Source of the DNA: Clostridiales bacterium
GTDB lineage: Bacteria; Bacillota; Clostridia; Oscillospirales; QAMX01
NCBI GenBank assembly: GCA_012800055.1
Contig: JAAZKA010000021.1
Span: 1 to 48,733, forward strand
DNA length: 48,733 bases
Reading direction: 5' to 3'
Position numbers and translations under genes: made by a program. The first letter of the stretch is position 1; every line of letters begins with the position of its first letter. Below the pieces are notes generated by a model. The model was given only the letters and a program-made list of their open reading frames with translations, ran no database searches and was not told the origin of the DNA. Of this stretch, positions 15,246 to 48,733 are shown one piece after another.

Positions 15246-15247
15246 GT

Positions 15248-19021: not shown

Positions 19022-19045
19022 CCCCCTCTCAGCATTGAGAGGGGG
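19022..19045 (-). terminator. Hairpin terminator after the 530-aa orphan gene
   Basis: Perfect 10-bp stem CCCCCTCTCA / TGAGAGGGGG with a 4-nt loop, 11 nt beyond the stop. The downstream T-run is weak. Confidence 0.45.
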
Positions 19046-19055
19046 AGTGATGATC

Positions 19056-20648: not shown

Positions 20649-20699
20649 ATGTACCTCCCTGTTGATTGTTATAGGCTGCTATGATGTTGTTATAAGAAC

Positions 20700-22733: not shown

Positions 22734-22734
22734 C

Positions 22735-23604: not shown

Positions 23605-24404
23605 AGGACATCTCTCTGGGGCAGTACATCCCCGGTACCAGCGTCATCCACCGGATGGATCCGCGGCTTAAGATCGTGCTCACTCTTGCATATATCGTCG
23701 TACTGTTCATGGCGAAGGGGCCTCTGTCCTATGGGTTGGTGCTGCTGACGCTCGGGCTGATTATCGTGCTGTCACGCATCGGGGTGCGGTTCGTGCTGCG
23801 GTCGGTGCGTCCGCTGCTGTTCATCATCCTCTTTACAGCCGTGTTGAACATGTTCCATGTTGACGGGGATGTGCTGTGGTCGTGGTGGATTCTGAAGATC
23901 ACGCGGCAGGGAATCGAGACGGCGATCTACATGGCACTGCGCATTGCGATGCTGATTTCGGGGACATTCGTCCTTTTGAACTACACGACATCGCCGATCA
24001 TGCTGACCGACGGGATCGAGCAGCTTCTCGGGCCGCTTAAAAGAATCCATGTGCCGGTGCATGAACTGGCGATGATGATGACGATTGCGCTGCGGTTTAT
24101 CCCGACGCTGATCGAGGAGACGGATAAGATCATGTCGGCGCAGAAGGCGAGGGGTGCGGACTTCGAGACGGGGAATGTCATACGAAGGGCAAAGGCGCTG
24201 ATACCGATGTTGGTGCCGCTGTTTGTCAGCGCGTTTCGGCGGGCAGATGAGCTGGCGGTGGCGATGGAGTGCAGGTGTTATCGGGGAAGCGAGGGCAGGA
24301 CGAGGCTAAGAACGCTGAAGCTGCAGGGGCTGGACTATGTGGCGATTGCGATAGCGGCGGTACTCGCGGCGGGGATCATTACACTGGGCGTGGTACTGCC
24401 GTAA
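23598..24404 (+). CDS. ecfT: Energy-coupling factor transporter transmembrane component
   Basis: Polytopic membrane protein with the CbiQ/EcfT-type motif ...MSAQKARGADFE... Its start overlaps the end of ecfA2. Confidence 0.9.
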   Translation: MLKDISLGQYIPGTSVIHRMDPRLKIVLTLAYIVVLFMAKGPLSYGLVLLTLGLIIVLSRIGVRFVLRSVRPLLFIILFTAVLNMFHVDGDVLWSWWILKITRQGIETAIYMALRIAMLISGTFVLLNYTTSPIMLTDGIEQLLGPLKRIHVPVHELAMMMTIALRFIPTLIEETDKIMSAQKARGADFETGNVIRRAKALIPMLVPLFVSAFRRADELAVAMECRCYRGSEGRTRLRTLKLQGLDYVAIAIAAVLAAGIITLGVVLP

Positions 24405-24438
24405 CCCGGCATCCCGTACATTACTTTTTCTCGGGGAA

Positions 24439-24466
24439 GCTTTCTTTTTCCAGTGAAAAAGAAAGC
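24439..24466 (+). terminator. Perfect 12-bp hairpin after ecfT (possible terminator or processing site)
   Basis: GCTTTCTTTTTC-CAGT-GAAAAAGAAAGC. The stem is AT-rich and there is no clear T-run. Confidence 0.35.
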
Positions 24467-24587
24467 GCGCATTCAACCCCCGTCGTACTCTACCCCGCGC
24501 ACAAAGCATCTTGGTGATTACGGAATCTCTTGTTAACGAGAGCTTGGAACGGGGGGTGTACGCTCCCGCTTGAAAGGATTTTCCGCT

Positions 24588-25349
24588 ATGAATATCGCTC
24601 TCTTCCTCTCCTACGTCGGCTCCCGCTACCATGGCTGGCAAACCCAGGCCAACGGCGATACCATCCAGCAAGCCCTTACCTCTGCCGTGCTGAAGACTAC
24701 CGGCTGTCATGTCTCCCTTTCCGGCTGCGGTCGTACCGACGCCGGCGTCCATGCCCGCGTCTACTGCGCAAATGCCCGCTTCTCTACCTCCATCCCCCTG
24801 TCCCGTCTTCCTCTCGCCCTCAACGCACGCCTTCCCGACGATATCGCCGTCCGCGAGGCGCGCATCGTCCCCGATGATTTCGACTCCCGCTTCTCCTGTA
24901 AGCGCAAAGAGTATACCTATACCGTCTACAACTCCCGTATGCGCGACCCATTCCTCCTCGAACGTGCCTGTTTCTTCCCCTATCCCCTCGATTTCTCCCG
25001 TGTCCAGGCTGCTGCGGGGATGTTCGAGGGAACCCATGACTTCAAAGCCGTCCGCCGCGTCGGCAGCCCAACAAAAACCACCGTCCGCACCATCTTCTAC
25101 TGTACCGCCGAAAAGTCGGGAGACCTCATCACCGTCAAAATCTGCGGCGACGGTTTCCTTTATAATATGGTCCGTGCCATTACCGGGACTCTACTCTACG
25201 CCGGGATGAACAAGCTCAACCCCGAGGATATCCCCGCCATCCTTGACTCCGGCGACCGCGCACTCGCCGGGCCTACTCTCCCGGCTGCCGGCCTTGCGAT
25301 GACCGGTCTCTGGTACGACGACTTCACCCTTCCGCTTCGATCGGAGTGA
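24588..25349 (+). CDS. truA: tRNA pseudouridine(38-40) synthase
   Basis: The N-terminus MNIALFLSYVGSRYHGWQTQ and the catalytic GCGRTDAGVHA motif. The ATG at 24588 follows GAAAGGA. Confidence 0.9.
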   Translation: MNIALFLSYVGSRYHGWQTQANGDTIQQALTSAVLKTTGCHVSLSGCGRTDAGVHARVYCANARFSTSIPLSRLPLALNARLPDDIAVREARIVPDDFDSRFSCKRKEYTYTVYNSRMRDPFLLERACFFPYPLDFSRVQAAAGMFEGTHDFKAVRRVGSPTKTTVRTIFYCTAEKSGDLITVKICGDGFLYNMVRAITGTLLYAGMNKLNPEDIPAILDSGDRALAGPTLPAAGLAMTGLWYDDFTLPLRSE

Positions 25350-25356
25350 GTTATTT

Positions 25357-26559
25357 ATGAACGCAACCTCCTACGCCAACCCCGCGTCCGAGAAACCGCC
25401 GGTCAAACGCGACAGACGGCTTGACCTGCTGCGCTTCCTGCAGCAGCTGATGCTGTTCTGCATGGTTGCCACGATTGTGCTCTCGGCCTATATTTTCCGT
25501 GCCGATATCCTCGAAGCCTATGCCGCCTACCGCGCCAGCGTCCAGCTTGTGGAATCCCGCGCCGAATCCCGCATCAACTTCGAGCCTGACTCGTCCAATA
25601 TCTTCGCCCTCTATGGAAATAATCTGGCCGTGCTCAACCGAGGGACGTATAAGCTCTATACGCCCGCCGGCGACGAACAGCTCGCCATTCAGTATATCAG
25701 CGCCAACCCTGCCATGTCCGTCTCGGATACCTATGTCTGTCTCTATAACCGAGGTTCCGCCGAGATCACCGTTACCTCTCTGACCTCCACCGTCGGGAAG
25801 ATCACCGTTTCCGGCGCGATCATCTCCGTCTCGCAGAACGACTCCGGCTGCATCGCCGTCCTCCATGATGACGACCGTTACCGCAGCGTCCTTTCCGTAT
25901 ACGACCCGCAGCTCAACCTCATCTATCAATGGAAGACCTCCGAGTATTATCTGCTGACCGCCGCACTCTCGCCGGACGGAAAGACGCTCGCTGCCGTCGC
26001 GATGACCCAGGACGACGCCGTCTTTATCACCCGCGTCATCACCTTCCTGCTCGAGGAGGAGTCTTACCACGCCGTCTGCGACCTCCCCGGAACCCTCGTC
26101 ACACGCCTGCAGTTCTTCGACAATACCGCGCTGTGCGCCATCGGCAATACCCGCGCCTGTGTCATCACCACCGACGGAAAAATCCGCTATGAGTTCCCTT
26201 ACAGCGGCTGCTCCCTGCGCACCTGTGCGTTTGATACCGCCGCCTGTGTTCTCGCGCTCGTTGACCGCACCTCCGGCCTGTCTTCATACCTCGTCTCCCT
26301 CACCGCCGACCGTGAGCCCGTCACCCTCGACGCGTCCGATGTCCGCTGGATCGACGTCAACGACGGCTACGTCGCCATTCTCTATACCGATACCGCCGAA
26401 ATACGCGATACCGCGTTCAATAAGCTCAGCGCGCCTGTCACCATCTTCAATGTACGGCGTATTTTCGTGACCGACGGCGGACGTGCGCTCGTCGTCTACA
26501 CCTCAGAGGCCGGCGTCGTCGACCTCGTCACACCGTTCATCGGCAGGGAGGTCAGTTGA
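25357..26559 (+). CDS. Hypothetical membrane-anchored protein with a repeat-rich (propeller-like) ectodomain, possibly DUF5711-like
   Basis: One N-terminal transmembrane segment (LMLFCMVATIVLSAYIF) is followed by about 340 aa of beta-rich sequence. The family name is from memory only. Confidence 0.55.
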   Translation: MNATSYANPASEKPPVKRDRRLDLLRFLQQLMLFCMVATIVLSAYIFRADILEAYAAYRASVQLVESRAESRINFEPDSSNIFALYGNNLAVLNRGTYKLYTPAGDEQLAIQYISANPAMSVSDTYVCLYNRGSAEITVTSLTSTVGKITVSGAIISVSQNDSGCIAVLHDDDRYRSVLSVYDPQLNLIYQWKTSEYYLLTAALSPDGKTLAAVAMTQDDAVFITRVITFLLEEESYHAVCDLPGTLVTRLQFFDNTALCAIGNTRACVITTDGKIRYEFPYSGCSLRTCAFDTAACVLALVDRTSGLSSYLVSLTADREPVTLDASDVRWIDVNDGYVAILYTDTAEIRDTAFNKLSAPVTIFNVRRIFVTDGGRALVVYTSEAGVVDLVTPFIGREVS

Positions 26560-28166: not shown

Positions 28167-29621
28167 ATGTATTATATCGGTATAGACGTCGGTACCTCCA
28201 GCGTCAAGGCTGCCGTCCTCGAGCACGGCAGTGTCCGAACCGTCCGCGCGGTCTACGATTCCCACGGCAATACACCCCTCGGTTGGTGGGACGCACTCTG
28301 CCGCGCCGTCCGTCAGGTTTCCGGCGAGATGGGACCGGACTGCGGAGGATTGGGCCTTACCGCGCAGGTCGGCACCTATCTTCTTGCGAACCCCGGCATC
28401 CCCGTCGAACAGTGGCCCGTCTACGACTGGGGCGGTCCCGGCGGTACCGATGAACGGGAGGAACTCCAGCGGCGCTTCGGTACCGATTTCTTCCTTGCCT
28501 ATACCGGGATGCCTCTCCCGAAGGTTCCCAGCTTCCCCGCGTCACGCCTCCTCTGGTTCCGGCGCAAAAAAGCCTCCGAATGGGAAACCGCCACCCGTAT
28601 CCTCGCTCCCAAGGACTTTCTCTATGAAAGGCTCACCGGTCAGTGCTACACCGACACATTCACCTGGAACGGTCTGTCCAATCCGCGTACCGGCTCCGTT
28701 TCGCAGGCATTCCTCGACGCGCTCGAACTGCCCGCGACCCGCTTCCCCCAGATGTTCTCGTCGCTCACCGCACCCGGCGGACTGACCGTCCATGCAGCCG
28801 AATTACTCGGACTGCGGCCTGCGACGAAGGTCTACCTCGGCTGCAACGACTCTCACGCGTCCTTCGTCGGCATGGGCATCACCGAGATCGGTCAGGCATT
28901 CGACCTCACCGGCACCTCCGAGCATGTCGGACTTATCACTCCCGAACCGTTCGGCGACGGTGAGGTAATCTGTTCGCCTTTTTTCCGCGGCTGCGCTACC
29001 TTTGGCGTCACCGCGTCGTCCGGCATGTCCATCGACTGGGGCTTCCGGATGTGGGGAAGCTTCGCCGACGGCGTCTCGGAGGACGATGTACGCGGACGCT
29101 TCCTTGCTTTTCAGCGCGGAGAAACTCACCCGCCGGTGTTCCTTCCCTACGTCAACGGCGAGCGGACACCGATCTGGGACGGCAACGCGCGGGGTGTTTT
29201 CGCCGGCGTGTCGGAGAACCATACGCGTGCGGATATGCTCTACAGTGTGCTGGAGGGTGTGGTGTTCTCTGTAGCGCACATCTGGGAGGGACTGCCGGAA
29301 GAGCTGACCTCGCGCGCGGAATACATACGGCTGGGCGGAGGCGCTTGCGAGAACACGCTGATGAATGAGATGAAGGCGGCGCTGCTGGGTGTGACATTGG
29401 AGATACCGAAGGAAAAGAACTCGGGCGCGCTGGGTGCGGGAATGATTGCCGCCGTAGGCGCGGGAGAGTACGAGAATCTCGGGATGGCAGCGCGTGCGTA
29501 TGTGCGGCTGAGCCATAGCGTGCGGCCGACGGCCGACGCGCAGGGGCTGAAGCGCAGGTTCCGGCTTTACAAGCGTATGTCGACGCTGAACCGAGATCTG
29601 AGGATTCCGGAAAGCCTGTAG
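28167..29621 (+). CDS. FGGY-family carbohydrate kinase (xylulokinase-like)
   Basis: The N-terminus MYYIGIDVGTSSVKAAVL, and two-domain FGGY motifs (...GCNDSHASFVGMG..., ...RLGGGACEN...). Confidence 0.85.
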   Translation: MYYIGIDVGTSSVKAAVLEHGSVRTVRAVYDSHGNTPLGWWDALCRAVRQVSGEMGPDCGGLGLTAQVGTYLLANPGIPVEQWPVYDWGGPGGTDEREELQRRFGTDFFLAYTGMPLPKVPSFPASRLLWFRRKKASEWETATRILAPKDFLYERLTGQCYTDTFTWNGLSNPRTGSVSQAFLDALELPATRFPQMFSSLTAPGGLTVHAAELLGLRPATKVYLGCNDSHASFVGMGITEIGQAFDLTGTSEHVGLITPEPFGDGEVICSPFFRGCATFGVTASSGMSIDWGFRMWGSFADGVSEDDVRGRFLAFQRGETHPPVFLPYVNGERTPIWDGNARGVFAGVSENHTRADMLYSVLEGVVFSVAHIWEGLPEELTSRAEYIRLGGGACENTLMNEMKAALLGVTLEIPKEKNSGALGAGMIAAVGAGEYENLGMAARAYVRLSHSVRPTADAQGLKRRFRLYKRMSTLNRDLRIPESL

Positions 29622-31123: not shown

Positions 31124-31283
31124 GCGCGTATAGGCGGCGGTGTTGCGGATTCTGTCCGATCAGTGTTGACATTTACACAATGGTCTTCAAGCTGCAAGCC
31201 CCTCTGTATTTCACGGAGGGGCTTGTTTTACATATGAGGCTGTGATATACTGGGCACATCCAAACAATCAGGAGGGTTCTATC

Positions 31284-33050
31284 ATGACTTATCCGATCGT
31301 GACCAACGGGATCTGTAGATACAGCGTCGTATGCGCAAAAACCGCCGACGAGACGGTGCGCTATGCCTGCAATGAGCTGCGCCGCTTCCTGTTCGAATGT
31401 ACGGGCGCGGCGGTACCGGTGCTGTCGGACATCTGTCCGTATACGCGTCCGGAGCTGCGTATCGGGCCGGATGTCCGCGACGACCCGTTCTACCGGACTT
31501 TGGACATCGCCGCACTTGGGGATGAAGGCTTCACCATCCGTACCCATGGATCAGACATCTATATCACGGGCGGCGGCTCGCGCGGGACGCTCTACGGCGT
31601 CTATGCGTTTCTCGAGCGGTTCCTTGGATGCCGGTGGTTCACTCCTACGGTCTCCCGCATCCCGAAGCGCCGGGAGCTGATTCTCGAAGATGTCGACATC
31701 ACCGAACGTCCGGCATTCGAGTCGCGCGACGCGTACTGGGGCAGCGCGTTCGACGGAACCTTCTGCGCGCGCAACCGGCTGACATCGTCCAAAGCGCTCA
31801 TCGCAAACGAGCAGGGCGGTAAGCTGCGCTGGTTCAACTTCCACCACGCGATGTATGACCTCGTCCCGCCGAGCAAGTACGCGCAGGAGCATCCCGAGTA
31901 TTACGCACTGGTGGACGGGAAACGTCTCACCGAACATGCGCAGCTTTGCCTCTCGAACCCCGACGTCGTGCGCATCGCAGCCGAAACGCTCAAGGGATGG
32001 ATCCGTGCAAACCCCGACTGCACAGTTTTCTCCGTCGCGCAGAACGACGGCTCCGGCTACTGTACCTGCAACGCCTGCCGGGCACTCGATGAGGCCGAGG
32101 GGACGCCGTGCGCGAGTCTGCTCAACTTCGCCAATCAGCTCGCCGACGCTGTCCGCGGCGAGTTCCCGCACGTGCTGCTGCACACCTTCGCGTACTATTA
32201 CAGCGTCGTGCCGCCGAAGACGCTGCGGCCAAGGGAGAACGTGATCGTCCGGCTGTGCAACATCTCCTGCGACTTCGGACGGCCGTTCACCGAAGGCGCG
32301 CGGCTCGATCCGAAACCCTACACGCGTGAATTCATCGAAAGCCTCGAGAAGTGGGGACAGATCGCGCCTCGGCTCTACATCTGGGACTACTGCACCGACT
32401 TCCGCTGCTACCTGCAGCCGTTCCCGAACCTGGATGCGCTGGGTGAGAATATCAGGCTCTACCGCGACATGGGTGTGCGCGGGGTATTCATGGAGGGTGA
32501 CTTTTCCCACGGCTGTGCGGCGTATATGAACGAGCTGCAGGTGTATTTACAGGCGCGGCTGATGTGGAACCCCGATCTCGATATCAAGGAGGAGACAGAC
32601 GTTTTCCTCTCGGGTTACTACGGAAACGCCGCGCCGTATATCAGACGCTTTCTCGACCTGACGCAGGCGGTGGTACGGGATGCCTATCGCGACCCCGCGT
32701 TCCGCATGACGATCTACGAGTGGCCGGACAGCGCGTTCATCACCGACGCGTATGTGGATGAGGCGGAGCGGCTGATGAACATGGCAACTGCCGCGGCGGA
32801 GGATGATGCGGTGCGGTACCGCGTGGAGCGGACGCGGCTGAGCGTGGAGTTCTTGAAGCTGACGCGGATGCCGACGGACACCCCCATGCGCAGCGCCCTG
32901 ATCGACGCGTTCGGGCAGAGGCTGAGAAAGTACGGCGTGTCGGAGATCACCGAGCGCGGATGGCTCGACCCGAGTATCGAAGGGCTGAAGAAGTCCCGAT
33001 ATGCGCGGGATATCCGGGACAATTATCTGTGGATGTATTACAGAATGTAA
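31284..33050 (+). CDS. DUF4838-domain protein (glycoside-hydrolase-like), leaderless
   Basis: The segments ...FHHAMYDLVPPSKYAQEHPEYYALVDGKR...QLCLSNPDV...SVAQNDGSGYCTCNACRALDE... match the DUF4838 pattern as I recall it. The ATG at 31284 follows CAGGAGG. Confidence 0.65.
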   Translation: MTYPIVTNGICRYSVVCAKTADETVRYACNELRRFLFECTGAAVPVLSDICPYTRPELRIGPDVRDDPFYRTLDIAALGDEGFTIRTHGSDIYITGGGSRGTLYGVYAFLERFLGCRWFTPTVSRIPKRRELILEDVDITERPAFESRDAYWGSAFDGTFCARNRLTSSKALIANEQGGKLRWFNFHHAMYDLVPPSKYAQEHPEYYALVDGKRLTEHAQLCLSNPDVVRIAAETLKGWIRANPDCTVFSVAQNDGSGYCTCNACRALDEAEGTPCASLLNFANQLADAVRGEFPHVLLHTFAYYYSVVPPKTLRPRENVIVRLCNISCDFGRPFTEGARLDPKPYTREFIESLEKWGQIAPRLYIWDYCTDFRCYLQPFPNLDALGENIRLYRDMGVRGVFMEGDFSHGCAAYMNELQVYLQARLMWNPDLDIKEETDVFLSGYYGNAAPYIRRFLDLTQAVVRDAYRDPAFRMTIYEWPDSAFITDAYVDEAERLMNMATAAAEDDAVRYRVERTRLSVEFLKLTRMPTDTPMRSALIDAFGQRLRKYGVSEITERGWLDPSIEGLKKSRYARDIRDNYLWMYYRM

Positions 33051-36565: not shown

Positions 36566-37933
36566 TTACACTTCCACCTTTTTGATCCACCGAAAGCGGT
36601 TGACTTTGACAACCGCGACGAAGCACTTGAGTATCTGGTCACTCTTAAGGCAGGCAAATACGACCAGCGGCCCAAGCTTCCAGACGAATGCCGAGAGCGC
36701 GGAGATCGGAAGGACAATGAGCCACATAAAGATCAGATCGTTATAGAGAACGAAGTCGGTCTGACCGCCGCCGCGCACGATTCCGCAGAGGCTGGGCATC
36801 TGGTAGGATGTCCCGATAGAGGTAATCGACAGCACAAGCATAAACCGACGGGCAAGGGCGAGCGTTTCCGGAGTGAGAGAGTAGAAGCTGAGCATCACGT
36901 CACGCAGAAGAAAGATTGTCATGCCGGTACACAAACCGATGCCGAGGTAGAGAAGCTGAACGGTCTGAGCGTAGGACTTGACATCGGCGATACGGCCTTC
37001 CCCGATGGTTTTGCCGATGAGGACGGAGGTACCGTTGGCGGAACCGTAGGCAACGACGGAGACCATGGAAAAAAGCGTACCGGAGACGGAGCTTGCGGCA
37101 ATGGCAGCCTGCCCCATATGACCGAGGATGCTCGACTGTATCCCCATCGCGATGCCCCAGGTGGAGCCGGATGCCATCATCGGCCATCCGACCTTGAAGA
37201 ATGACTTCACCGACGCAAGCGGCGTCTTCCTGAGAAAGTCTCGCAGACGGAGGTTCAGGCGGCGGTCGAAGAAACGGCAGTAGACGGTGACAACCAGCAG
37301 CTCGACGATACGCGCGGTGACGGTGGCGATGGCAGCGCCCTCGACGCCCAGCCGCGGAAAACCGAGACGGCCGTAGATCAGGCACCAGTTGAGCACGACA
37401 TTGACGGCGAGGGCGGTCAGGCTGACCCATAGTCCGATGCGTACGGTCTCGACGGAGCGCAGGGACGCCAGCAGGACCGCAGATGCGGCGTAGAAAAAGT
37501 AAGAGAAACAGACGATGCGCAGGTAGAGCATTCCCTCGGAGATGACAGCGGGATCGTCAGTCAGCAGCGTGAGGGTGAAGTGCGGAAAGAAGAACGCGGC
37601 GGCAAAGAGGAGCGTCGCGACGGAGAGGGAGAAGCGCATCCCGACGTTCGCAATCCCGGCGACGGGAGATAAATCGCGGCGTCCCCAGGCACGGGAGGCG
37701 AGGATGACGACGGCCTCGCACGCACCGCCGACAATCATCTGCAGCAGGAACTGTATCTGGTTGACAAGCGCGACACCGGCGAGCGCGGTTTCACTGTAGG
37801 CGCCGATCATTACGTTGTCGGCGAGGTTGACCGAGAAGGTGATGAGATTCTGCAGGGCGATGGTGAGCGTGAGAGTGAAGAAGCGTTTGTAGAAGTCGCG
37901 GTCACGGGTGATCATAGCTCGGCCTGCTTTCAT
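36566..37933 (-). CDS. MATE-family efflux transporter
   Basis: 455 aa with twelve transmembrane segments. The N-terminus ...FYKRFFTLTLTIALQNLITFSVNLADNVMIG is typical of MATE transporters. GAGGA ribosome-binding site. Confidence 0.9.
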   Translation of the reverse strand: MKAGRAMITRDRDFYKRFFTLTLTIALQNLITFSVNLADNVMIGAYSETALAGVALVNQIQFLLQMIVGGACEAVVILASRAWGRRDLSPVAGIANVGMRFSLSVATLLFAAAFFFPHFTLTLLTDDPAVISEGMLYLRIVCFSYFFYAASAVLLASLRSVETVRIGLWVSLTALAVNVVLNWCLIYGRLGFPRLGVEGAAIATVTARIVELLVVTVYCRFFDRRLNLRLRDFLRKTPLASVKSFFKVGWPMMASGSTWGIAMGIQSSILGHMGQAAIAASSVSGTLFSMVSVVAYGSANGTSVLIGKTIGEGRIADVKSYAQTVQLLYLGIGLCTGMTIFLLRDVMLSFYSLTPETLALARRFMLVLSITSIGTSYQMPSLCGIVRGGGQTDFVLYNDLIFMWLIVLPISALSAFVWKLGPLVVFACLKSDQILKCFVAVVKVNRFRWIKKVEV

Positions 37934-38016: not shown

Positions 38017-38045
38017 TTGCAATGAAACGGGAAATATGATAAAAT
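38017..38045 (+). promoter_or_regulatory. Promoter of the three-paralogue operon
   Basis: TTGCAA (38017-38022), exact 17-nt spacer, TAAAAT (38040-38045), with TGa extended -10. Confidence 0.55.
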
Positions 38046-38128
38046 ATGAAACAGACAAAACGGTTCTGCTTGTATAATAATGCGGAAAATCTTCCAAGTA
38101 CGCGAATCCTTTGCGCAGGAGGTTGTTT

Positions 38129-40387
38129 ATGAGTATCCCAAAGGGAAAAACCAGCTTTTTCGGCCGCTTTGACAATCCCGAAAAATTCCGCCTGATTCCT
38201 CAGGCCGGCATCCGTATCCGCATCGATCCCGCCGGTACCGGCTACCCGAGCTGCTGGGACATGAATGTCTCGCAGGAAACCGGCGTGCTGTACTTCTCAC
38301 CTTGCGACGAGACCGGACGCGGCGCACATACCCGGTTGTGCTGCTACGACTACGACTCCGATACTTCGAAGGTCTGCACGGAGCTGGAGCGCTACACACT
38401 CCCGCGTGAGCGCCATATGCCGCACTCCAAGCTCCACGAGAGCATCACCTGCCTTCCGAACGGCCACATCATCGCCTCTACCCACTCCACCGACCGCGGC
38501 AAGTTCCAGCCCGAGTGGATGCCGTTTGCTCACGTCGACCACGTCTGGGACGGCTTCCCCGGCTCCTATGTCATCGACTACGACCCCGCCACCGGAATCA
38601 CCCGCAACCTCGGGATGCCCGTCCCGCGTGAGAGCATCTACGGTATGACCTACGACGCCAGGCACAACTGTTTGTACATGATCGGCTTCATGCGCGGACA
38701 TGTTTACCGCTTCAGCTTGGACGACAGGAGCGTAAAGGATCTGGGCAAGGCGGCGGAAGTCTTCTGCTACCGGCTCCACCGCGGCCCCGACGGTCATATC
38801 TACGGTATGACCAAGTCCGGGTTTCTCTGGCGCGCGAACGTCGATACGCAGCAGCTTGAGGATATGGGCTGGCGGCTTCCGGCGCAGGAGCATAACTATA
38901 CCAACAACACCTGGTACCGCTACCTCTCCCAGGCACAGAACGTCTCCGACCATGAGTTCGTTTTTACCTCCGACTGCCACAACAACTTCTACCTCTTTGA
39001 TACGAACACCTGCAAGGTGCGCGACTTGGGCCGCTGCCACGACTTCGACTTCGAGAGCGACTTCAACACCGCGAGTTACGGTATGAACGAGCTGGAGGTC
39101 GATCAATATGGCGTGCTGTGGTATTATGTCGCGCCGCAGACCGCCGGCCCGCAGTACGATGACTTCTATAAATACCCGCGCTCGCTGGTGATGATGCGCT
39201 GGGACTATCGTGCAGGGAAGAAGCCCGAGGTCATGGGTCTGATCGGTACGCAGGAGGAAGCGCTCGTGCGCATCACCTGCATCTCGCTCGACCGTCCGCG
39301 TGACCGGCTCTATTTCATCGGGGAACTGCGTGAGGTCAAGGGTGACCGTGCCGACCGTCCGAACAAGTCGCGGCAGGGCATCTTCATGATCGACCTGGCT
39401 CAGATGAGAAACCTTCCCGCGCCGGGGCCGCTGTGGGAGCGCGACATGAGCATCTTCCCGTTCTCCGACGACGAGAAGAAGGCTGCGCTCGAACGTGCGG
39501 AGAAGTACAACTCTTACGCCGGTGAGGAAGTCGCGGGGGAGAATCCCGTGACGGCATTCCCGATCTCGAAGGTCACGCCGATCCGCCTGTGGCGCGCGCT
39601 TGCCGGCGGTCGCGTCGAGGATGCAGAGGCCAACGGCATCGCCTGGGACGGTGAGAAGCTCTGCGGTGTATCGGGCGAAAACGGTGAGCGGAAGTATTAC
39701 TTCGAGCTGTCCCCGCGCGGCTCGCTGGTTTTCCCGTCCGGGAAGGAAGCCGATCGCGACGAGACCGTCTGGGTCTGGCGCTCGATCCTGCAAAAAAGCA
39801 TCATCGAGAAGTCAACCGACGCGGGCTATGAGGTTTACCCGCCGACATCGTTCGCGTATGAGCTGACGAAGTTCATACCGTACACCGAGATCCCCGTCGG
39901 ACGCGAGAAGTGGCTCGACGCGAACCTGTACCCGAAAGCGTACGATGTGGATGAGAACCTGAAGCTGCCGGAGGTTGCCGGCCGCCGTTATCTCGCGAAA
40001 GCATCCGCTTGCATCGACTTCTCCGACAACCGTCAGATCATCGGCACAAAGGACGGACTGCTGTGCATCGCGAAGTACGGCAATGTGTTCAACCTCGGCA
40101 ACGCGGCGCCGCTCGGCCCGGTGCGCTGCCTGTGCACGAACGCCGACGGCACCGTCCTCTACGGCACCGCGGGCGACATCGAGGATATGGGCACGGTCTT
40201 CACCTATGACGATCGCAGCGGCCTGCGGCAGCTCGGCGTCATCAGTTACAACTCCCACGGCTGGATGGACGGCCCGACCGCCGCGCATGTGCTCACCTGC
40301 TGTGCGCTCAGCCCGGATGGGAAGTACCTCGCCGTCGGCAACGCCGATCGCCTCGGTTGCGTCCATCTGTTCCGGATCGAAGATTAA
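38129..40387 (+). CDS. Uncharacterised 752-aa leaderless beta-propeller-like protein, paralogue 1 of 3
   Basis: AGGAGG ribosome-binding site 6 nt upstream. The protein aligns over its full length with the next two ORFs. Conserved blocks include RHMPHSKLHESIT, THSTDRGKFQPEWMPFAHVDHVWDGFPGSY, PRESIYGMTYD, LYMIGFMRGHVYRFSLDD and ALSPDGKYLAVGNADRLGCVHLFRI. Confidence 0.85.
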   Translation: MSIPKGKTSFFGRFDNPEKFRLIPQAGIRIRIDPAGTGYPSCWDMNVSQETGVLYFSPCDETGRGAHTRLCCYDYDSDTSKVCTELERYTLPRERHMPHSKLHESITCLPNGHIIASTHSTDRGKFQPEWMPFAHVDHVWDGFPGSYVIDYDPATGITRNLGMPVPRESIYGMTYDARHNCLYMIGFMRGHVYRFSLDDRSVKDLGKAAEVFCYRLHRGPDGHIYGMTKSGFLWRANVDTQQLEDMGWRLPAQEHNYTNNTWYRYLSQAQNVSDHEFVFTSDCHNNFYLFDTNTCKVRDLGRCHDFDFESDFNTASYGMNELEVDQYGVLWYYVAPQTAGPQYDDFYKYPRSLVMMRWDYRAGKKPEVMGLIGTQEEALVRITCISLDRPRDRLYFIGELREVKGDRADRPNKSRQGIFMIDLAQMRNLPAPGPLWERDMSIFPFSDDEKKAALERAEKYNSYAGEEVAGENPVTAFPISKVTPIRLWRALAGGRVEDAEANGIAWDGEKLCGVSGENGERKYYFELSPRGSLVFPSGKEADRDETVWVWRSILQKSIIEKSTDAGYEVYPPTSFAYELTKFIPYTEIPVGREKWLDANLYPKAYDVDENLKLPEVAGRRYLAKASACIDFSDNRQIIGTKDGLLCIAKYGNVFNLGNAAPLGPVRCLCTNADGTVLYGTAGDIEDMGTVFTYDDRSGLRQLGVISYNSHGWMDGPTAAHVLTCCALSPDGKYLAVGNADRLGCVHLFRIED
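39905..40375 (+). repeat. Near-identical coding tract, copy A (3' end of paralogue 1)
   Basis: Aligns without indels to 42291-42761 at an offset of 2386 nt. For 39965-40375 against 42351-42761, my hand count gives about 30 mismatches in 411 nt. Confidence 0.85.
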
Positions 40388-40511
40388 GATATCGGGGTAT
40401 CCGTTCCCATACGTCATCAACCGCACCGTCTGTTTTTCCGACATCCCCGAAGGAAGCTATGAGATAAAGGTATCCCGCCCTATACCACAATAAAAGAGGA
40501 GGATCAAACAC

Positions 40512-42767
40512 ATGAGTATCCCGAAATGTACGAAAAGCTGGTTCGGGCGTTATGACGACCCGGAGAAGCTGCGCCTGATCCCGCAGGAAGGCGTCCGTAT
40601 CCGCGTGAACGCAGGAGGTACCGGCTACCCGAGCTGCTGGGACATGAACGTCTCACCCTACGACGGCGATCTCTACTACGCGCCGTGCGACGAGACCGGA
40701 CGCGGCGCGCATACCCGGCTCGTACGCTACAACTGGGAAAGCGACTCTGCGCGCGTGGTCGTGAAGGCTGAGGAGCTTGTGCTTCCGCGTGAGCGCCATA
40801 TGCCGCACTCCAAGTTCCATGAGAGCATTACCTTCCTCCCCAACGGCCATGTCGTCATGTCCACCCACTCCACCGACCGCGGCAAGTTCCAGCCCGAGTG
40901 GATGCCGTTTGCCCACGTCGACCACGTCTGGGACGGCTTCCCCGGCTCCTATGTCATCGAGTACGATCCCGTCACCGGTCGCTCGTGGAACCACGGCATG
41001 CCCGCCCCGCGTGAGAGCATCTACGGCATGACCTATGACCCGAAGTACAACGCGCTCTATATGATCGGTTTCATGCGCGGACATGTCTACCGGCTGAGCC
41101 TCGACGACAAGAGCGTGAAGGACCTGGGCAAGGCTGCGGAGGTCTTCTGCTACCGGCTCCACTGCGCCCCTGACGGCCATATCTACGGCATGACAAAGAC
41201 CGGCTTCCTCTGGCGCGTTAACGTCGATACGCAGCAGCTTGAGGACCTCAACTGGCGGCTCCCGGCGACCCGCTGGAGCTATGTCGCCGATACCTGGTAC
41301 CGCTACATGGCGCAGGCGCACAACGTTTCCGACCATGAGTTCGTCTTCTGCGGCTGCTCACAGGATAACTTCTACCTCTACGACTGCAGTACCGGCAAGG
41401 TGCGCGATCTGGGACCGAAGATGCCGTGCGAGTTTGAGAACGACATCGAGATGGCCAACTTCTCAAACAACGAGTTCGGTGTCGACCGTGACGGCGTGCT
41501 GTGGTATACGCAGAAACCCGAACGCTACCACAATCCGTCGGACGAATACTATAAAATTCCGCGGGTGCTGCTGCTGTGCCGGTTCGACTATAAGAACGGC
41601 AAGCCCGCCGAAGTCGTCGGCATCCTCGGAACGCAGGATCAGGCGCTGGTACAGGAGACCTGCTCGTGCCTGGACGCCGCGCGCGACCGCTTCTTCATCA
41701 TCGGGCAGATTCTCAAGTTTGGGAAGCCGGATGCCCAGAGTGAGCAGGGTCTGTTTATGCTTGACCTGACGAAGACCCGCGAAGCACTCAAGAAGGGACG
41801 CGGCCCCGTCTGGGTACGCGATCTGAAGTCCGAGATCGTTCCGATGAACGAGACCGAGGTCGCCGCCGCGAAGAAGAAGGCTCTCAACTATAACAAGTAC
41901 GCCGGTGAGGAAGTCGCTGAGAAGAACCCCGTCACCGCGTTCCCGATCAGCGATGTCATCCCGATACGGCTGTGGCGTCAGCTCGCGGGCGGACATATCG
42001 AAGACTCCAAGGTCTCCGGCATCGCGTGGGACGACCTCGGAAATCTGCACGGTGTCTGCGGCGAGAACGGCGAGCGGAAGTATTACTTCAAGATATCTCC
42101 CGCGTCCGATATGCTCTTTCGGGACAAAGCGGAGGCCGACAACTGCGAGACCGTCTGGATGTACCGGATGATCCGCAAGTTCGATCTGTCAGAGCGTCAG
42201 ACCGAACAGGGATATGCCGTCACCCCGCCGGACGCGTTCTCCTATAAGGTCGAGACGTTTATCCCGTACGAGAAGATCACCGTCGGGCAGGAGAAGTGGC
42301 TCAACGCGAACCTGTTCCCGAAAGCGTACGATGTGGACAAAGACCTGACGCTGCCGGAGATCGCCGGACGCCGCTACCTTGCGAAAGCGTCCGCCTGCAT
42401 CGACTTCTCCGACAACCGTCAGATCATCGGCACGAAGGACGGACTGCTGTGCATCGCGAAGTACGGCAATATCTTCAACCTCGGCAACGCCGCGCCGCTC
42501 GGCCCGGTGCGCTGCCTGTGCACGAACGCCGACGGCACCGTCCTCTACGGCACCGCAGGCGATGAAGAGGATATGGGCACCGTCTTCACCTATGACGATC
42601 GCAGCGGTCTGCGGCAGCTCGGCGTCATCAGCTACAACTCGCACGGCTGGATGGACGGCCCGACCGCCGCACATATACTCACCTGCTGCGCGCTCAGCCC
42701 GGATGGCAAGTACCTTGCCGTCGGCAACGCCGACCGCCTCGGCTGCGTGCATCTGTTCCGGCTGTAA
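40512..42767 (+). CDS. Uncharacterised 751-aa leaderless beta-propeller-like protein, paralogue 2 of 3
   Basis: GAGGAGG ribosome-binding site. Same blocks and architecture as paralogue 1. The last 140 aa or so are almost identical to paralogue 1. Confidence 0.85.
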   Translation: MSIPKCTKSWFGRYDDPEKLRLIPQEGVRIRVNAGGTGYPSCWDMNVSPYDGDLYYAPCDETGRGAHTRLVRYNWESDSARVVVKAEELVLPRERHMPHSKFHESITFLPNGHVVMSTHSTDRGKFQPEWMPFAHVDHVWDGFPGSYVIEYDPVTGRSWNHGMPAPRESIYGMTYDPKYNALYMIGFMRGHVYRLSLDDKSVKDLGKAAEVFCYRLHCAPDGHIYGMTKTGFLWRVNVDTQQLEDLNWRLPATRWSYVADTWYRYMAQAHNVSDHEFVFCGCSQDNFYLYDCSTGKVRDLGPKMPCEFENDIEMANFSNNEFGVDRDGVLWYTQKPERYHNPSDEYYKIPRVLLLCRFDYKNGKPAEVVGILGTQDQALVQETCSCLDAARDRFFIIGQILKFGKPDAQSEQGLFMLDLTKTREALKKGRGPVWVRDLKSEIVPMNETEVAAAKKKALNYNKYAGEEVAEKNPVTAFPISDVIPIRLWRQLAGGHIEDSKVSGIAWDDLGNLHGVCGENGERKYYFKISPASDMLFRDKAEADNCETVWMYRMIRKFDLSERQTEQGYAVTPPDAFSYKVETFIPYEKITVGQEKWLNANLFPKAYDVDKDLTLPEIAGRRYLAKASACIDFSDNRQIIGTKDGLLCIAKYGNIFNLGNAAPLGPVRCLCTNADGTVLYGTAGDEEDMGTVFTYDDRSGLRQLGVISYNSHGWMDGPTAAHILTCCALSPDGKYLAVGNADRLGCVHLFRL
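42291..42761 (+). repeat. Near-identical coding tract, copy B (3' end of paralogue 2)
   Basis: Counterpart of 39905-40375; see copy A. Confidence 0.85.
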
Positions 42768-42799
42768 GCCTTACATAAACAAGATAAGGAGTGACATAT

Positions 42800-45091
42800 A
42801 TGGCCCCGAACCGCACTTTCGCGTTTGATTATTCCGGTGCGATCCCCGAGGAAGCATACCGCAACATCGCCGACGTCGGCGTACGCTACTCCCGCTTCAA
42901 CGTGGGTCTGGACGTCCGCGGCACCTGGGACGTCAACATCTCCCCGGACGGCATCGTCTATACGGCTCCCGCCTGCGAAGGCACCAAGGAGCAGCAGACC
43001 TCCCTGCTCGCCTATGACTTCGATCAGGACAAGAGTTACATCTGCTACAACTCCGAGAAGTACACGCTCGCGAAGCCCCGCGCGCTGCCGCATACCAAGC
43101 TCCACGAGAGCATCACCTTCATCCCCGAGAACGCGCCGTCCTTTGGAGGATGGGTCTTCGCGACCACCCACTCCACTTCCAAGGCCGAAAGTCATCCCGA
43201 GTGGATGCCGTTTGCGCATATGCACCACGCGCATGAAGGTTTCCCCGGCTCCTACATCCTCGCCTACAATCCCAAGACACAGGAGACCGTCAACCTCGGT
43301 ATCCCTGTCCCGCGTGAGAGCATCTACGGCGCAACCTACGACGTTAAGCACCACTGCCTGTACATGATCGGCTTCATGCGCTCCCATGTCTACCGCTTCT
43401 CCATCGACGAGCGCACCGTCATCGATCTGGGCAAGGCAGCGGAGGTCTTCTGCTACCGGCTCCACCGCGCCCCCGACGGAAACATCTACGGCATGTCCAA
43501 GTCCGGCTATCTCTGGCGCGTCAATGTCGACAAGGTCGTGCTCGAGGACATGAACTGGCGGCATCCTGCGTACTACAACAACTCCTTCAACAACTCCTGG
43601 TACCGCTACATGGCCCACGCACAGAACATCTCCGACCATGAGTTTGTCTTCACCTCCTACACCTCCGACGATTTCTATGTCTTCGATACCAACACCCTCA
43701 AGGTGCGTTCTATCGGCCGCAAGTTCACCCACGACGACCACAACAACATCCGCCATACCGAGTTCTGTCTCAACGAGCTGGCCGTCGACAAGTACGGCGC
43801 GCTGTGGTATCAGATCATGCCGGTCGTTCTCGGCACCCCCGCGCCCGAGGACTACCGCAAGTACACCATCCCGTCCTACCTGATGTATTGGGACATCCGC
43901 CGCAATAAGAAGCCCGTCAATCTCGGCTACGTTTCAAACAATGTCGACGCGATGCCCTATTCGACCGGCGTCTGCTATGACCCGACACGCGATATCCTCC
44001 ACCTCGTCGGCGGCATGCAGAAGAACAACGGCGCCGACCGCGTGCTCGGCGTTGTGAGCATTGAGCTTGCGAAGTTCCGCCCGGAGATGCTCAAAAAGGG
44101 CGCGCTCTCCAACGACCCGAACTTCAAGGCTGTGCCCTTCACGCCCGAGCAGATTGCCGAGGCGAAGAAGAACTACAAGCCCGGCTTTAAGAAGTATTCC
44201 GGCGAGGAGATCTCCGGCAATAACCCCTTCCAGGCGTTCCCGGAGGACAAGATCACGCCTATCCGTGTCTGGCGCGCGGTGCCGTACACCGATATCCCGG
44301 CGTCAAAAATCATCGGACTGGCGTGGGATGACGCAGGTGTGTTGCACGGTGTCTGCGGAGACAACGGTCAGCCTCAGTATTACTTCACCGTCGAGGAGAA
44401 CCTCTTTGAGGTACTCGGCAAGACGCTCGACGAGGCCGACATGAACCCGACCGCGTGGGTCTACAAGAGTATCCTCCCGCTGAACATCGAGCGGCGCGGG
44501 GACTACTACGGCGCGGTGCCGCCGAAGTCGTTCGCGTACAAGCTCAAGACGATTGTACCATATGCAGAGGTGAGTGCCGAGCGGAAAGCATGGCTCGACG
44601 AGAACCTGCTGCCCGGTAAGAACCGGAGTGCGGTAAAGCTCCCCGAGGGCGTCAAGCTGCCCGAGGTCGCCGGACGCCGGTACCTTTCCAATCCCACCTG
44701 CGTGGTTGAGTGGCAGGACGGCAGCTGGATTGCCGGGACGCAGGACGGTCTGCTCGGCATCGTCCGCGCGGACGGCAGCGTCTACGCACTGGGCAACTGT
44801 GCGCCATACGGACCGGTGCGCTGCATGGTCACCAATGCCGATCGTACGAAGGTCTGGGGCGTCGCCGGCGACGTCGAGGATATGGGTATGGTCTTCAGCT
44901 TCGACGACGAGCACGGCGTCATTCAGATCGGCCATCTCAACTACAACAGCCCGAACTATATGGACGGCCCTTCGGCCGCGAACGTCCTGTCGAGCATCGC
45001 GCTGTCCAAGGACGGCAAGACGCTCGCCATCGGCGGCATAGACCGCATCGGCAGCGTCCACATCGGCAACATCGCGGATACAAGACTGTAA
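42800..45091 (+). CDS. Uncharacterised 763-aa leaderless beta-propeller-like protein, paralogue 3 of 3 (most divergent)
   Basis: AAGGAG ribosome-binding site 8 nt upstream of the ATG at 42800. It retains LPHTKLHESITF, THSTSKAESHPEWMPFAHMHHAHEGFPGSY, PRESIYGATYD, LYMIGFMRSHVYRFSIDE and ALSKDGKTLAIGGIDRIGSVHIGNI. Confidence 0.85.
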   Translation: MAPNRTFAFDYSGAIPEEAYRNIADVGVRYSRFNVGLDVRGTWDVNISPDGIVYTAPACEGTKEQQTSLLAYDFDQDKSYICYNSEKYTLAKPRALPHTKLHESITFIPENAPSFGGWVFATTHSTSKAESHPEWMPFAHMHHAHEGFPGSYILAYNPKTQETVNLGIPVPRESIYGATYDVKHHCLYMIGFMRSHVYRFSIDERTVIDLGKAAEVFCYRLHRAPDGNIYGMSKSGYLWRVNVDKVVLEDMNWRHPAYYNNSFNNSWYRYMAHAQNISDHEFVFTSYTSDDFYVFDTNTLKVRSIGRKFTHDDHNNIRHTEFCLNELAVDKYGALWYQIMPVVLGTPAPEDYRKYTIPSYLMYWDIRRNKKPVNLGYVSNNVDAMPYSTGVCYDPTRDILHLVGGMQKNNGADRVLGVVSIELAKFRPEMLKKGALSNDPNFKAVPFTPEQIAEAKKNYKPGFKKYSGEEISGNNPFQAFPEDKITPIRVWRAVPYTDIPASKIIGLAWDDAGVLHGVCGDNGQPQYYFTVEENLFEVLGKTLDEADMNPTAWVYKSILPLNIERRGDYYGAVPPKSFAYKLKTIVPYAEVSAERKAWLDENLLPGKNRSAVKLPEGVKLPEVAGRRYLSNPTCVVEWQDGSWIAGTQDGLLGIVRADGSVYALGNCAPYGPVRCMVTNADRTKVWGVAGDVEDMGMVFSFDDEHGVIQIGHLNYNSPNYMDGPSAANVLSSIALSKDGKTLAIGGIDRIGSVHIGNIADTRL

Positions 45092-45106
45092 GCCACTGAT
45101 TTCCAA

Positions 45107-45137
45107 AAACGCGCGCGTCTTCGGATGCGCGCGTTTA
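45107..45137 (+). terminator. Terminator of the three-paralogue operon
   Basis: GC-rich stem AACGCGCGC / GCGCGCGTT (45108-45116 and 45127-45135) followed by TTTATATA. Confidence 0.6.
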
Positions 45138-47975: not shown

Positions 47976-48404
47976 GAATCATTACGTAAATTTAATATCT
48001 GTCGATTCCGCTGCCGATCATGCCTGAGCAATTCCCCAAAACCTCGGATGTTTTTTGTTTTAAAAAAGGATTCGTGATATATTATACAACATTTTGTACA
48101 GAAAAGGGCGGATGAGATTACGTTATCTATACAACATCACATAGCAAATGGCAAAACGCATAAAAAAACAGGGTTAAGATTGTGCAAAGTGACACTTGAA
48201 CAATGCACAATAATATGATACTATAAAACAGATTCATTGAGGGGATTCCACTATTCCTTGTTGCTATTTGGTGAACAACCAAAATGCGGTTGTTTTTATA
48301 TTATGAAGCAAGTAAAAGAGGTTGCGCGACGCCGGGAAAAGTACCCGGATAAAATAAAAAACCTCCCGCTGTCGCGGGGAATCATCAGTGAAAGGTGGAA
48401 AACC

Positions 48405-48733
48405 ATGTTTTTCAAAAAAGTTGCCAAACACATCAGAGACTACTGGGCTCTGCACGTAATGGCACTCCCCGGGGTCATCGCCGTCTTTATCTTCAGCTAT
48501 TTGCCGAAGTTCGGCGTCATCGTCGCGTTCCAGAGGTTTAACTACAAAAAGGGCTTCTTTGGCAGTAAATTCGTTGGGCTCGACAACTTCAAGTTCCTCT
48601 TTCAGACCACCGACGCATGGATCATCACCCGTAATACCGTCTGCTATAACGCCGTCATGATCCTGCTCAATACCACCCTCGCCGTTATCCTTGCGATGAT
48701 CCTCAATGAGGTCAAGAGCAAAAAGCTCGCCAA
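48405..48733 (+). CDS. Carbohydrate ABC transporter permease (LplB/MsmF-like), N-terminal fragment running off the window
   Basis: The ATG follows AAAGGTGGA. The translation MFFKKVAKHIRDYWALHVMALPGVIAVFIFSYLPKFGVIVAFQRFNYKKGFFGSKFVGLDNFKFLF is typical of polysaccharide/sugar ABC permease N-termini. Confidence 0.8.
   Translation, partial: MFFKKVAKHIRDYWALHVMALPGVIAVFIFSYLPKFGVIVAFQRFNYKKGFFGSKFVGLDNFKFLFQTTDAWIITRNTVCYNAVMILLNTTLAVILAMILNEVKSKKLA

Follow-up and report, generated by a model that had tools for sequence, protein, structure and literature searches.

What do three adjacent copies of a large protein, one that no searched library names, do for the bacterium that carries them? The copies lie at positions 38,017 to 45,137 of a 48,733-nucleotide contig from a Clostridiales bacterium (GenBank JAAZKA010000021.1, assembly GCA_012800055.1), the whole of which was analysed and is called the window below. 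An earlier note on this DNA had read them as an operon of three leaderless, beta-propeller-like paralogues and had proposed a new family of cytoplasmic glycoside hydrolases or polysaccharide lyases. We find that they belong to a small family of predicted double-propeller proteins and that their genes are under strong purifying selection. Our preferred reading of their function, to which we give an even chance of being right, is that they may be leaderless, probably His- or metal-assisted enzymes for imported carbohydrates or glycosides, each paralogue with a specificity of its own.

A three-gene array with its own signals

The array consists of three genes on the same strand, each with its own ribosome-binding site (Shine-Dalgarno sequence) 6-9 nt ahead of its ATG. 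The following features of the array were recovered:

38129-40387, plus strand: gene A, ATG start, 752 aa, A-type paralogue of the predicted double-propeller family
40512-42767, plus strand: gene B, ATG start, 751 aa, second A-type paralogue
42800-45091, plus strand: gene C, ATG start, 763 aa, C-type paralogue
38117-38122, plus strand: AGGAGG, ribosome-binding site of gene A, read from the sequence
40496-40502, plus strand: GAGGAGG, ribosome-binding site of gene B, read from the sequence
42787-42792, plus strand: AAGGAG, ribosome-binding site of gene C, read from the sequence
38017-38045, plus strand: sigma-70-like promoter candidate TTGCAA-17-TAAAAT, with 9/12 consensus matches and TG before the -10, a consensus match only
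38073-38078, plus strand: alternative perfect -10, TATAAT, with TG before it, 50 nt ahead of gene A's start codon and without a good -35
45107-45136, plus strand: intrinsic-terminator candidate downstream of gene C, a 13-bp, GC-rich hairpin flanked by an A-tract and a U-tract

The three proteins aligned end to end, with identities of 68.5% for A/B, 48.8% for A/C and 45.6% for B/C, and all of the shared motif blocks listed in the earlier note were found. The intergenic gaps (124 bp between A and B, 32 bp between B and C) hold no further gene, so that the unit contains solely the three paralogues, as had been claimed. Because no 19-residue Kyte-Doolittle mean in A, B or C exceeded 0.93, we assign neither a signal peptide nor a transmembrane segment to any of them, in agreement with their description as leaderless.

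The array appeared to be bracketed by transcription signals on both sides. A consensus scan recovered the promoter candidate of the earlier note and gave 7 promoter-like sites in the array region compared to 2.3 expected in shuffles; the TATAAT element closer to gene A is an equally good candidate. At the other end, folding against shuffled sequences recovered the hairpin (-23.4 kcal/mol, z = -4.3), with 0/200 shuffles equally stable. A simple terminator scan missed this hairpin because the U-run lies partly inside the stem. The layout of the proposed operon was confirmed in this way; its co-transcription, which we infer, is plausible, and A, B and C are probably carried on one transcript.

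A small family outside the searched libraries

The earlier note could not place the proteins in any characterised group, and the library searches gave the same picture. No Pfam model reached its gathering cut-off in A, B or C, and an NCBIfam scan of the three yielded nothing above cut-off and nothing meaningful. Below the cut-offs, WD40 (PF00400) scored 24.6 bits in A and 22.3 bits in B against a cut-off of 27, at residues 720-742 only, and SGL (PF08450, SMP-30/gluconolactonase/LRE-like) scored 13.9 and 17.6 bits, respectively, against a cut-off of 26.3, over residues ~172-343; C matched neither. At E <= 1, no glycoside hydrolase, polysaccharide lyase or Reg_prop model of Pfam matched A, B or C. 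PADLOC-DB returned 0 families at E <= 0.1 for the three proteins; a role in anti-phage defence was rejected because no PADLOC model matched.

Searches of all PDB chains with the single sequence, a full-length profile and an N-domain profile found no sequence relative. Apart from marginal WD40 stretches, they brought up just the repeats of designed 'Cake' propellers, which resemble the blade repeats at residues 184-239 (E 1.5e-5) and which we take to derive from PQQ/BamB-like blades. Neither hidden Markov models nor the structure comparisons described below gave a confident match to a characterised family. Literature searches found no characterised double-propeller glycoside hydrolase and no gene cluster that combines a propeller protein with AKR.

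A word-indexed search of 5.8 billion proteins returned 173 relatives, nearly all of them full-length (680-790 aa), and phmmer, run exhaustively over 1.84 billion cluster representatives, gave 269 matches at E <= 0.001, 83 of them at E <= 1e-30. Nearly all of the 173 relatives carry either no name or a generic one ('hypothetical', 'lactonase family', 'PQQ-like', 'WD40 repeat'); the more distant cluster members are likewise named 'hypothetical' or generically. A, B and C cover positions 1-739, 1-739 and 7-739 of the family profile, respectively, and keep every invariant column of the family. Judged by these searches, the family is real but small, rare and without a name in the searched libraries.

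The sub-threshold SGL matches raise the question of whether the proteins are sugar lactonases, either of the SMP-30/gluconolactonase type or 7-bladed, which we consider improbable. A few members bear the automatic names 'lactonase family protein' or 'sugar lactone lactonase YvrE', the SGL score of P0242, a distant relative, is 30 bits (cut-off 26.3), and the AKR, GFO/IDH/MocA dehydrogenase and Amidohydro_2 neighbours seen in other genomes would fit oxidative sugar pathways that produce lactones. However, the SGL scores of A and B themselves stay under the cut-off, C has no match and NCBIfam is empty. What A and B share with SGL and PQQ/BamB-like repeats is a generic blade motif (DGxIY...G.L..ln), not an active site. 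Known lactonases are single propellers of 300-400 aa, not doubles of ~750 aa, and the architecture of A, B and C is twice as large as that of SGL-type propellers. Moreover, Amidohydro_2 lactonases are already present in some of the same operons. The SGL type is a six-bladed single propeller whose axis carries a divalent-metal site; the N-terminal domain of our proteins best matches 7-bladed propellers.

A predicted double propeller

A full-length AlphaFold2 model built on a 40-sequence alignment reached a mean predicted local distance difference test score (pLDDT) of 92.1 and a predicted template modelling score (pTM) of 0.92. In this model residues 1 to ~430 are all-beta, a linker of lower confidence lies at ~460-480, residues 482-620 are mixed alpha/beta, and residues 625-749 form three clear four-strand blades. 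The last blade, at ~750 aa, is also the end of the chain, and no further domain was found. As modelled, a 7-bladed N-terminal beta-propeller is packed against a smaller C-terminal propeller-like part, and the blade count appears to be ~7 + 5 in the two linked parts. The 'one or two beta-propellers' of the earlier note are therefore best described as two propeller-like parts, a description to which both AlphaFold2 and Foldseek lead.

Foldseek searches of the PDB gave >1200 matches at E <= 0.001, and all of the 50 best were propeller proteins. With the full-length model these were doublet-microtubule chains of ~600-630 aa, WD40 proteins of the small-subunit (SSU) processome, tricorn protease and the periplasmic sensor domains of BT4663/BT4673, all of them generic tandem propellers with identities of 8-11% and template modelling scores normalised to the query (TMq) <= 0.31. 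The N-terminal domain was also modelled separately so that single-propeller enzymes could rank. Its model (pLDDT 85.5, pTM 0.88) was all-beta with a 4-strand periodicity, a periodicity that the full-length model shows too, and its Foldseek matches were the 7-bladed WDR5, a bacterial WD40 protein, YncE, BT4663 and virginiamycin B lyase (Vgb), with scores normalised to the target (TMt) of 0.71-0.77 and identities of 8-13%.

Vgb was the sole enzyme near the top of the N-domain list. Its 7-bladed propeller (PDB 2Z2N/2Z2O/2Z2P, 2QC5) matched with E ~1e-10 and TMt 0.74-0.77; TMq was 0.51-0.53 owing to large insertions in the query. The elimination reaction of Vgb depends on Mg2+ and on His and Glu residues, and this resembles the His/Glu-rich conserved set of the family described below. 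However, Vgb is a single domain of ~298 aa with 10% identity, its chains were not detected by sequence or profile searches with the family, and the likeness is at the level of the fold only. Other propellers that cleave carbohydrate include the PL22 oligogalacturonate lyase, the PL24/25 ulvan lyases and the GH74 xyloglucanases. PL22 is cytoplasmic and uses a metal bound by His; in GH74, ~750 aa form a pair of 7-bladed propellers. None of these propeller enzymes was among the 50 best Foldseek matches of either search, and no Asp-box/BNR repeats were reported in A, B or C.

The structure matches also bear on a different explanation, that the proteins are non-catalytic scaffolds binding ligands or partners, like WD40/EML or Bacteroides sensor propellers, with A- and C-type members forming a hetero-oligomer. 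We regard this as unlikely. The top Foldseek matches do consist of scaffolds and of the glycan-sensing BT4663/BT4673 domains, and weak Reg_prop matches occur among the family's distant relatives. The best E-values belonged to doublet-microtubule tandem propellers (PDB 8SNB chains 4A/4B, 9E2G chains 2B/2C; ~600-630 aa), possibly EML-type TAPE domains, which likewise pack two propellers tightly together in a single chain (600-750 aa). They differ in being eukaryotic microtubule-associated scaffolds, with identities of 9-11% and TMq of 0.23-0.31.

The Bacteroides hybrid two-component sensors BT4663 (PDB 4A2L/4A2M) and BT4673 (3OTT/3VA6) resemble our proteins in their tandem propellers and size, their domains were among the best matches of both the full-length model and the N-domain, and the sensors and our family both occur in a glycan-related genomic context. 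The identity was ~10% with a global TMq <= 0.31, and A, B and C give no Reg_prop match. Unlike the hybrid sensors, they also lack a Y_Y_Y domain, transmembrane segments, kinase and regulator domains and a signal peptide. Since membrane and signalling domains and signal peptides are missing, A, B and C are best seen as cytoplasmic stand-alone proteins. For a scaffold, the lack of any output, DNA-binding or membrane domain is a difficulty.

A conserved polar set in the N-terminal propeller

Conservation was scored over 104 full-length members from 70 loci, with identities down to ~30%. Columns at least 95% identical across these members numbered 84 and were concentrated in residues 95-265. The conserved polar positions are R95, K101, H103, S105, T118, H119, T121, D152, E168, H191, D204, E210, R215, D221 and K229, accompanied by the tyrosines Y171, Y175, Y183, Y193, Y225 and Y263. 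A further conserved motif (E466, N472, R486, W488) lies in the linker loop, and R619, T640, D642, D694, D740 and R741 are conserved in the C-terminal part. The remotest relatives (E ~1e-14, 750-1100 aa) kept K-x-H-[SA] and T-H-T almost without exception; Tyr replaces H119 in 2 of the 18 tested, and most of them also have E/D168, H191 and D204. As a sequence pattern, K-x-H and T-H-T together with the Glu and His positions fit a catalytic or ligand-binding site and not a structural repeat. The same residues (K-x-H...T-H-T, Glu, His) are immediate targets for mutagenesis.

This composition speaks against a scaffold, as the invariant set is mostly His, Glu, Asp, Lys and Arg within one 170-residue stretch, not the structural Gly, Trp and Asp positions typical of scaffold propellers. 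Gene fusions among the distant relatives point the same way, since they join the family to enzyme domains. P0193 (995 aa) is fused to a Tannase/feruloyl-esterase domain and P0195 (1113 aa) to a GlcNAc-2-epimerase-like domain; both are secreted forms with a signal peptide and keep K-x-H and T-H-T.

The most conserved loops, 94-96 and 132-142, dropped to pLDDT <50 once the C-terminal part was removed, compared to block means of 86 for residues 91-100 and 58 for residues 131-140 in the full-length model. Because confidence falls without the C-terminal part, there is a hint that these loops contact it. The putative conserved pocket of the N-propeller probably faces the C-terminal part and the linker loop of E466, N472, R486 and W488.

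The ratio of nonsynonymous to synonymous substitution rates (dN/dS) of orthologue pairs was 0.03-0.11 at dS 0.6-1.0. In a second strain, L081, which is 98.2% identical in nucleotides over 20.6 kb, A, B and C are all intact, and just 12 of the 77 nucleotide differences from the window change an amino acid. These substitution patterns indicate that the array genes are under strong purifying selection. They leave hardly any room for the notion that the genes are decaying, non-functional duplicates or unreal open reading frames: A, B and C are full-length against the family profile and intact in the second strain, dN/dS is 0.03-0.11 and every invariant residue is kept. What could be cited for decay are split family copies in other metagenome-assembled genomes (L015, L016, L047), which may themselves be pseudogenes or assembly errors. 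The pseudogene reading was rejected on the dN/dS values and the intact genes of L081, and the earlier concern about decaying duplicates did not materialise.

The split copies consist of two adjacent open reading frames each, at L015:5115-7355 (623+122 aa), L016:8145-10399 (631+171 aa) and L047:8148-10238 (162+518 aa). Frameshift pseudogenes or errors in the assembly of these metagenome-assembled genomes may account for them.

Old arrays of probably non-redundant copies

In a neighbour-joining tree, C clustered with members from L011, L012, L013, L015 and L016 in a separate clade, and A and B fell in an A-type clade that is its sister. The C-type member is the final gene of the array in all six genomes of the window's clade. 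The number of A-type copies varies: L011 and L012 carry one A-type and one C-type gene, and L013 (= L001) carries four A-type genes and one C-type gene. Judging from the tree, B is an old extra A-type copy. Over the last ~110 codons (~42440-42767 in B, ~40060-40387 in A) the proteins of B and A are 96-98% identical. In this 3' end dS was 0.27 and dN 0.024, compared to dS 0.82 across the rest of the genes, and this low dS and high identity at the 3' end indicate an old partial gene conversion between A and B.

Arrays of 2 to at least 6 copies were found in further clades of uncultured Clostridia (L005, L046, L050, L052, L053, L054, L056, L059, L062-L064), and paralogues are positionally orthologous between genomes in these other arrays as well. 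At every locus in Lentisphaerae, Victivallis and Kiritimatiellae, as in an 8.2-Mb genome, the family gene stands as a single copy. The single-copy loci indicate that one protein is functional alone, and together with the positional orthology they indicate that the arrays are old, maintained sets of non-redundant genes. A hetero-oligomeric scaffold would find support in the constant adjacency and fixed order of A- and C-type genes in six genomes, and the positional orthology in other arrays would fit co-evolving subunits; it is weakened by the many genomes with a single copy.

All records found come from metagenome-assembled genomes, assigned to Oscillospiraceae, Faecousia, Butyricicoccaceae, Lentisphaerae or Kiritimatiellae. 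Some of these genomes carry arrays of 10-15 kb plus several extra family loci.

Carbohydrate-related neighbours in other genomes

A Pfam census of 109 operon-like partners of family loci gave, as raw counts, BPD_transp_1 7, Amidohydro_2 5, DUF3502 4, PHP 4, GFO/IDH/MocA 3-4, AKR 3, fucosidase 2 and GntR 2. Among 86 flanking genes, the raw counts were GFO/IDH/MocA 4, DUF4838 3, AraC 3, FGGY 2 and BNR 2. Individual loci show how these genes are combined. In one, five family copies have two PHP-domain genes and a Melibiase_2 alpha-galactosidase interspersed between them, and in another a single family copy comes after GntR, an F5/8-type-C protein and a GH42-domain protein of 1368 aa. Clusters with AKR include the following: AKR, family gene, aminotransferase, FGGY kinase and AraA-like isomerase; two sugar ABC permeases and a DUF3502 binding protein followed by the family gene, an unannotated gene and AKR; and GHL6, an unannotated gene, GDSL, AKR and the family gene. 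Two more loci have the orders ROK, DUF4432, polysaccharide deacetylase, unannotated gene, family gene, and sugar-binding protein, GntR, unannotated gene, family gene, three amidohydrolases. This carbohydrate-related context outside the window supports a sugar-processing role in a way that is suggestive rather than decisive.

PHP-domain genes, which encode metal-dependent phosphoesterases, lie inside two arrays, at L005:12109-13901 and L059:12736-13587, and directly upstream of a single copy at L060:2608-3468; the PHP genes of L005 adjoin the Melibiase_2 alpha-galactosidase. The PHP and Melibiase_2 neighbours hint at phosphorylated or galactosylated substrates.

At L041:12102-14378 and L048:2926-5241, an unannotated ~760-aa protein is encoded directly downstream of orthologous family members. 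The two proteins share 70% identity and did not match the propeller family, and that of L041 had no Pfam match and no PDB sequence match. Operon partners of 700 aa in L041, L078, L059 and L063 were considered as family members and rejected because they had no family match. A PDB sequence search showed the partner in L063, the only one of the four identified, to be an unrelated acetyl-CoA synthase.

A divergent MatE efflux gene beside the array

In the window the array is preceded by a transporter gene:

36566-37933, minus strand: MatE efflux gene, divergent and directly upstream of the array

Further upstream follow SDR and YfhO, and the genes downstream of the array encode a G5/3D cell-wall protein, KsgA and a TrmB-like methyltransferase. 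MatE and the array are adjacent in five genomes (window/L081, L011, L012, L013/L001 and L019 listed) with a gap of 113-272 bp, and the outer flanks differ where annotated (window/L081 and L001/L013). MatE and the array are possibly linked in function or share a regulatory region.

The persistence of this module in five genomes despite differing outer flanks is one point for a third explanation, in which the proteins, together with MatE efflux, modify or detoxify xenobiotics or secondary metabolites of plants, such as phenolic esters, glycosides or cyclic ester antibiotics of the kind cleaved by Vgb. Vgb is the best enzyme match of the N-domain (TMt 0.74-0.77), and one distant relative is fused to Tannase/feruloyl-esterase. 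We nonetheless hold this to be quite unlikely. The MatE linkage is confined to the window's sub-clade and absent from ~60 other loci, most of the other contexts are those of sugar uptake and catabolism, and the likeness to Vgb is generic, with 10% identity and no detection in sequence or profile searches.

Weighing an enzymatic role

Returning to leaderless enzymes acting on imported sugars, the preferred reading can be put as follows. The array is a real, maintained three-gene unit and encodes leaderless proteins of a family of ~700-790 aa with a predicted double propeller. A polar and aromatic pocket of the N-propeller (R95, K101-x-H103, T118-H119-T121, E168, H191, D204 and others) would lie at the domain interface. 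In the cytoplasm the proteins would use a reaction of the hydrolase, lyase or lactonase type to cleave carbohydrates or glycosides that have been imported, or to convert them, and the tandem copies would be old, non-redundant variants in specificity. Gene structure, paralogy, fold, conservation, selection, family distribution and genomic associations are shown by the data above, and catalysis, metal use, substrate class, the interface location of the pocket and co-transcription are all inferred parts of this scheme.

The narrower hypothesis of the earlier note, a cytoplasmic glycoside hydrolase or polysaccharide lyase, may draw indirect support from the neighbours in other genomes, from the Tannase and GlcNAc-2-epimerase-like fusions and from the conserved polar pocket. 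In its fullest form, the proteins would be a new family of carbohydrate-active enzymes (CAZymes) outside CAZy, a double-propeller glycoside hydrolase or lyase with a possibly metal-dependent His/Lys/Glu active site at the interface, and the arrays of 2 to at least 6 positionally conserved paralogues in uncultured Clostridia of gut and digester would serve as a cytoplasmic battery of different specificities for oligosaccharides taken up by the cell. We advance this tentatively and consider it possible but doubtful. In the window's clade, MatE could then export the released aglycone or a by-product.

Several observations weigh against an enzymatic role in sugar processing. No characterised enzyme was matched by sequence or structure; the Foldseek matches were generic propellers with 8-13% identity, and many of them are non-catalytic scaffolds. 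That the conserved residues form one pocket is suggested by their position in the sequence and by the changes in model confidence. The array in the window and its closest relatives stands alone beside MatE and housekeeping genes, and in other genomes the neighbouring families are heterogeneous, with no universal partner. In addition, GFO/IDH/MocA proteins and ABC sugar permeases are common in such genomes.

The propeller fold is known, and the genomic context is like that of other loci for cytoplasmic glycan processing; new are the undescribed family, the unusual double-propeller architecture with its sharply conserved putative pocket and the fact that it has no solved structure. If the proteins are enzymes, they would form a class of their own in structure for processing carbohydrates or glycosides in the cytoplasm, one that current annotation misses wholly, and the large arrays and extra loci would point to an important, unseen part of the hosts' substrate range. 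Should they lack catalytic activity, they would still be unusual, as a conserved double-propeller scaffold of the bacterial cytoplasm that is encoded in arrays of several paralogues. With a few hundred clusters, the family is small enough for a complete survey.

Other features of the window

The earlier note had called the context rich in leaderless glycan-processing candidates and had pointed to a nearby sugar ABC permease. The following genes bear on these two statements:

12061-13164: BNR sialidase-like gene, one of the scattered glycan-related genes
13692-15251: GH123, scattered glycan-related
15248-16735: fucose-isomerase-like gene, scattered glycan-related
28167-29621: FGGY kinase, scattered glycan-related
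31242-33050, plus strand: DUF4838 protein with a GH67-N-like domain (Pfam), scattered glycan-related
48300-48733, plus strand: N-terminus of a sugar ABC permease (BPD_transp_1), in the last ~430 bases and running off the window end
21888-25349, plus strand: housekeeping cluster ecfA-ecfA'-ecfT (CbiQ)-truA, with the ABC genes at 21888-24404 forming an ECF module

A few scattered glycan-related genes are indeed present, but the array itself is flanked by MatE and housekeeping genes, and housekeeping genes make up most of the window (RecA, CysS, Mfd, the ECF transporter module, TruA). The permease is real but lies ~3.2 kb downstream of the array, with three unrelated genes between; in L081 the genes that come after this permease encode a second permease and a DUF3502 solute-binding protein. 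The ABC genes at 21888-24404 were ruled out as a sugar transporter, since they belong to the housekeeping ECF module.

DUF4838 genes flank family members in three other loci, and the gene at 31242-33050 may therefore reflect a recurrent association. Two long open reading frames overlap on opposite strands at 19035-20684 (plus, 549 aa) and 19056-20648 (minus, 530 aa), neither with a Pfam match. More generally, the minus-strand open reading frames at 19-22.7 kb had no Pfam match, and two of the three plus-strand alternatives tried gave one, a SAM methyltransferase at 20909-21799 and the ECF ATPase at 21888-22733, which is no sugar permease; the third, 19035-20684, gave none. Finally, the gene at 25357-26559 (plus strand) encodes a DUF5711 protein (E 8e-26), a member of another uncharacterised family.

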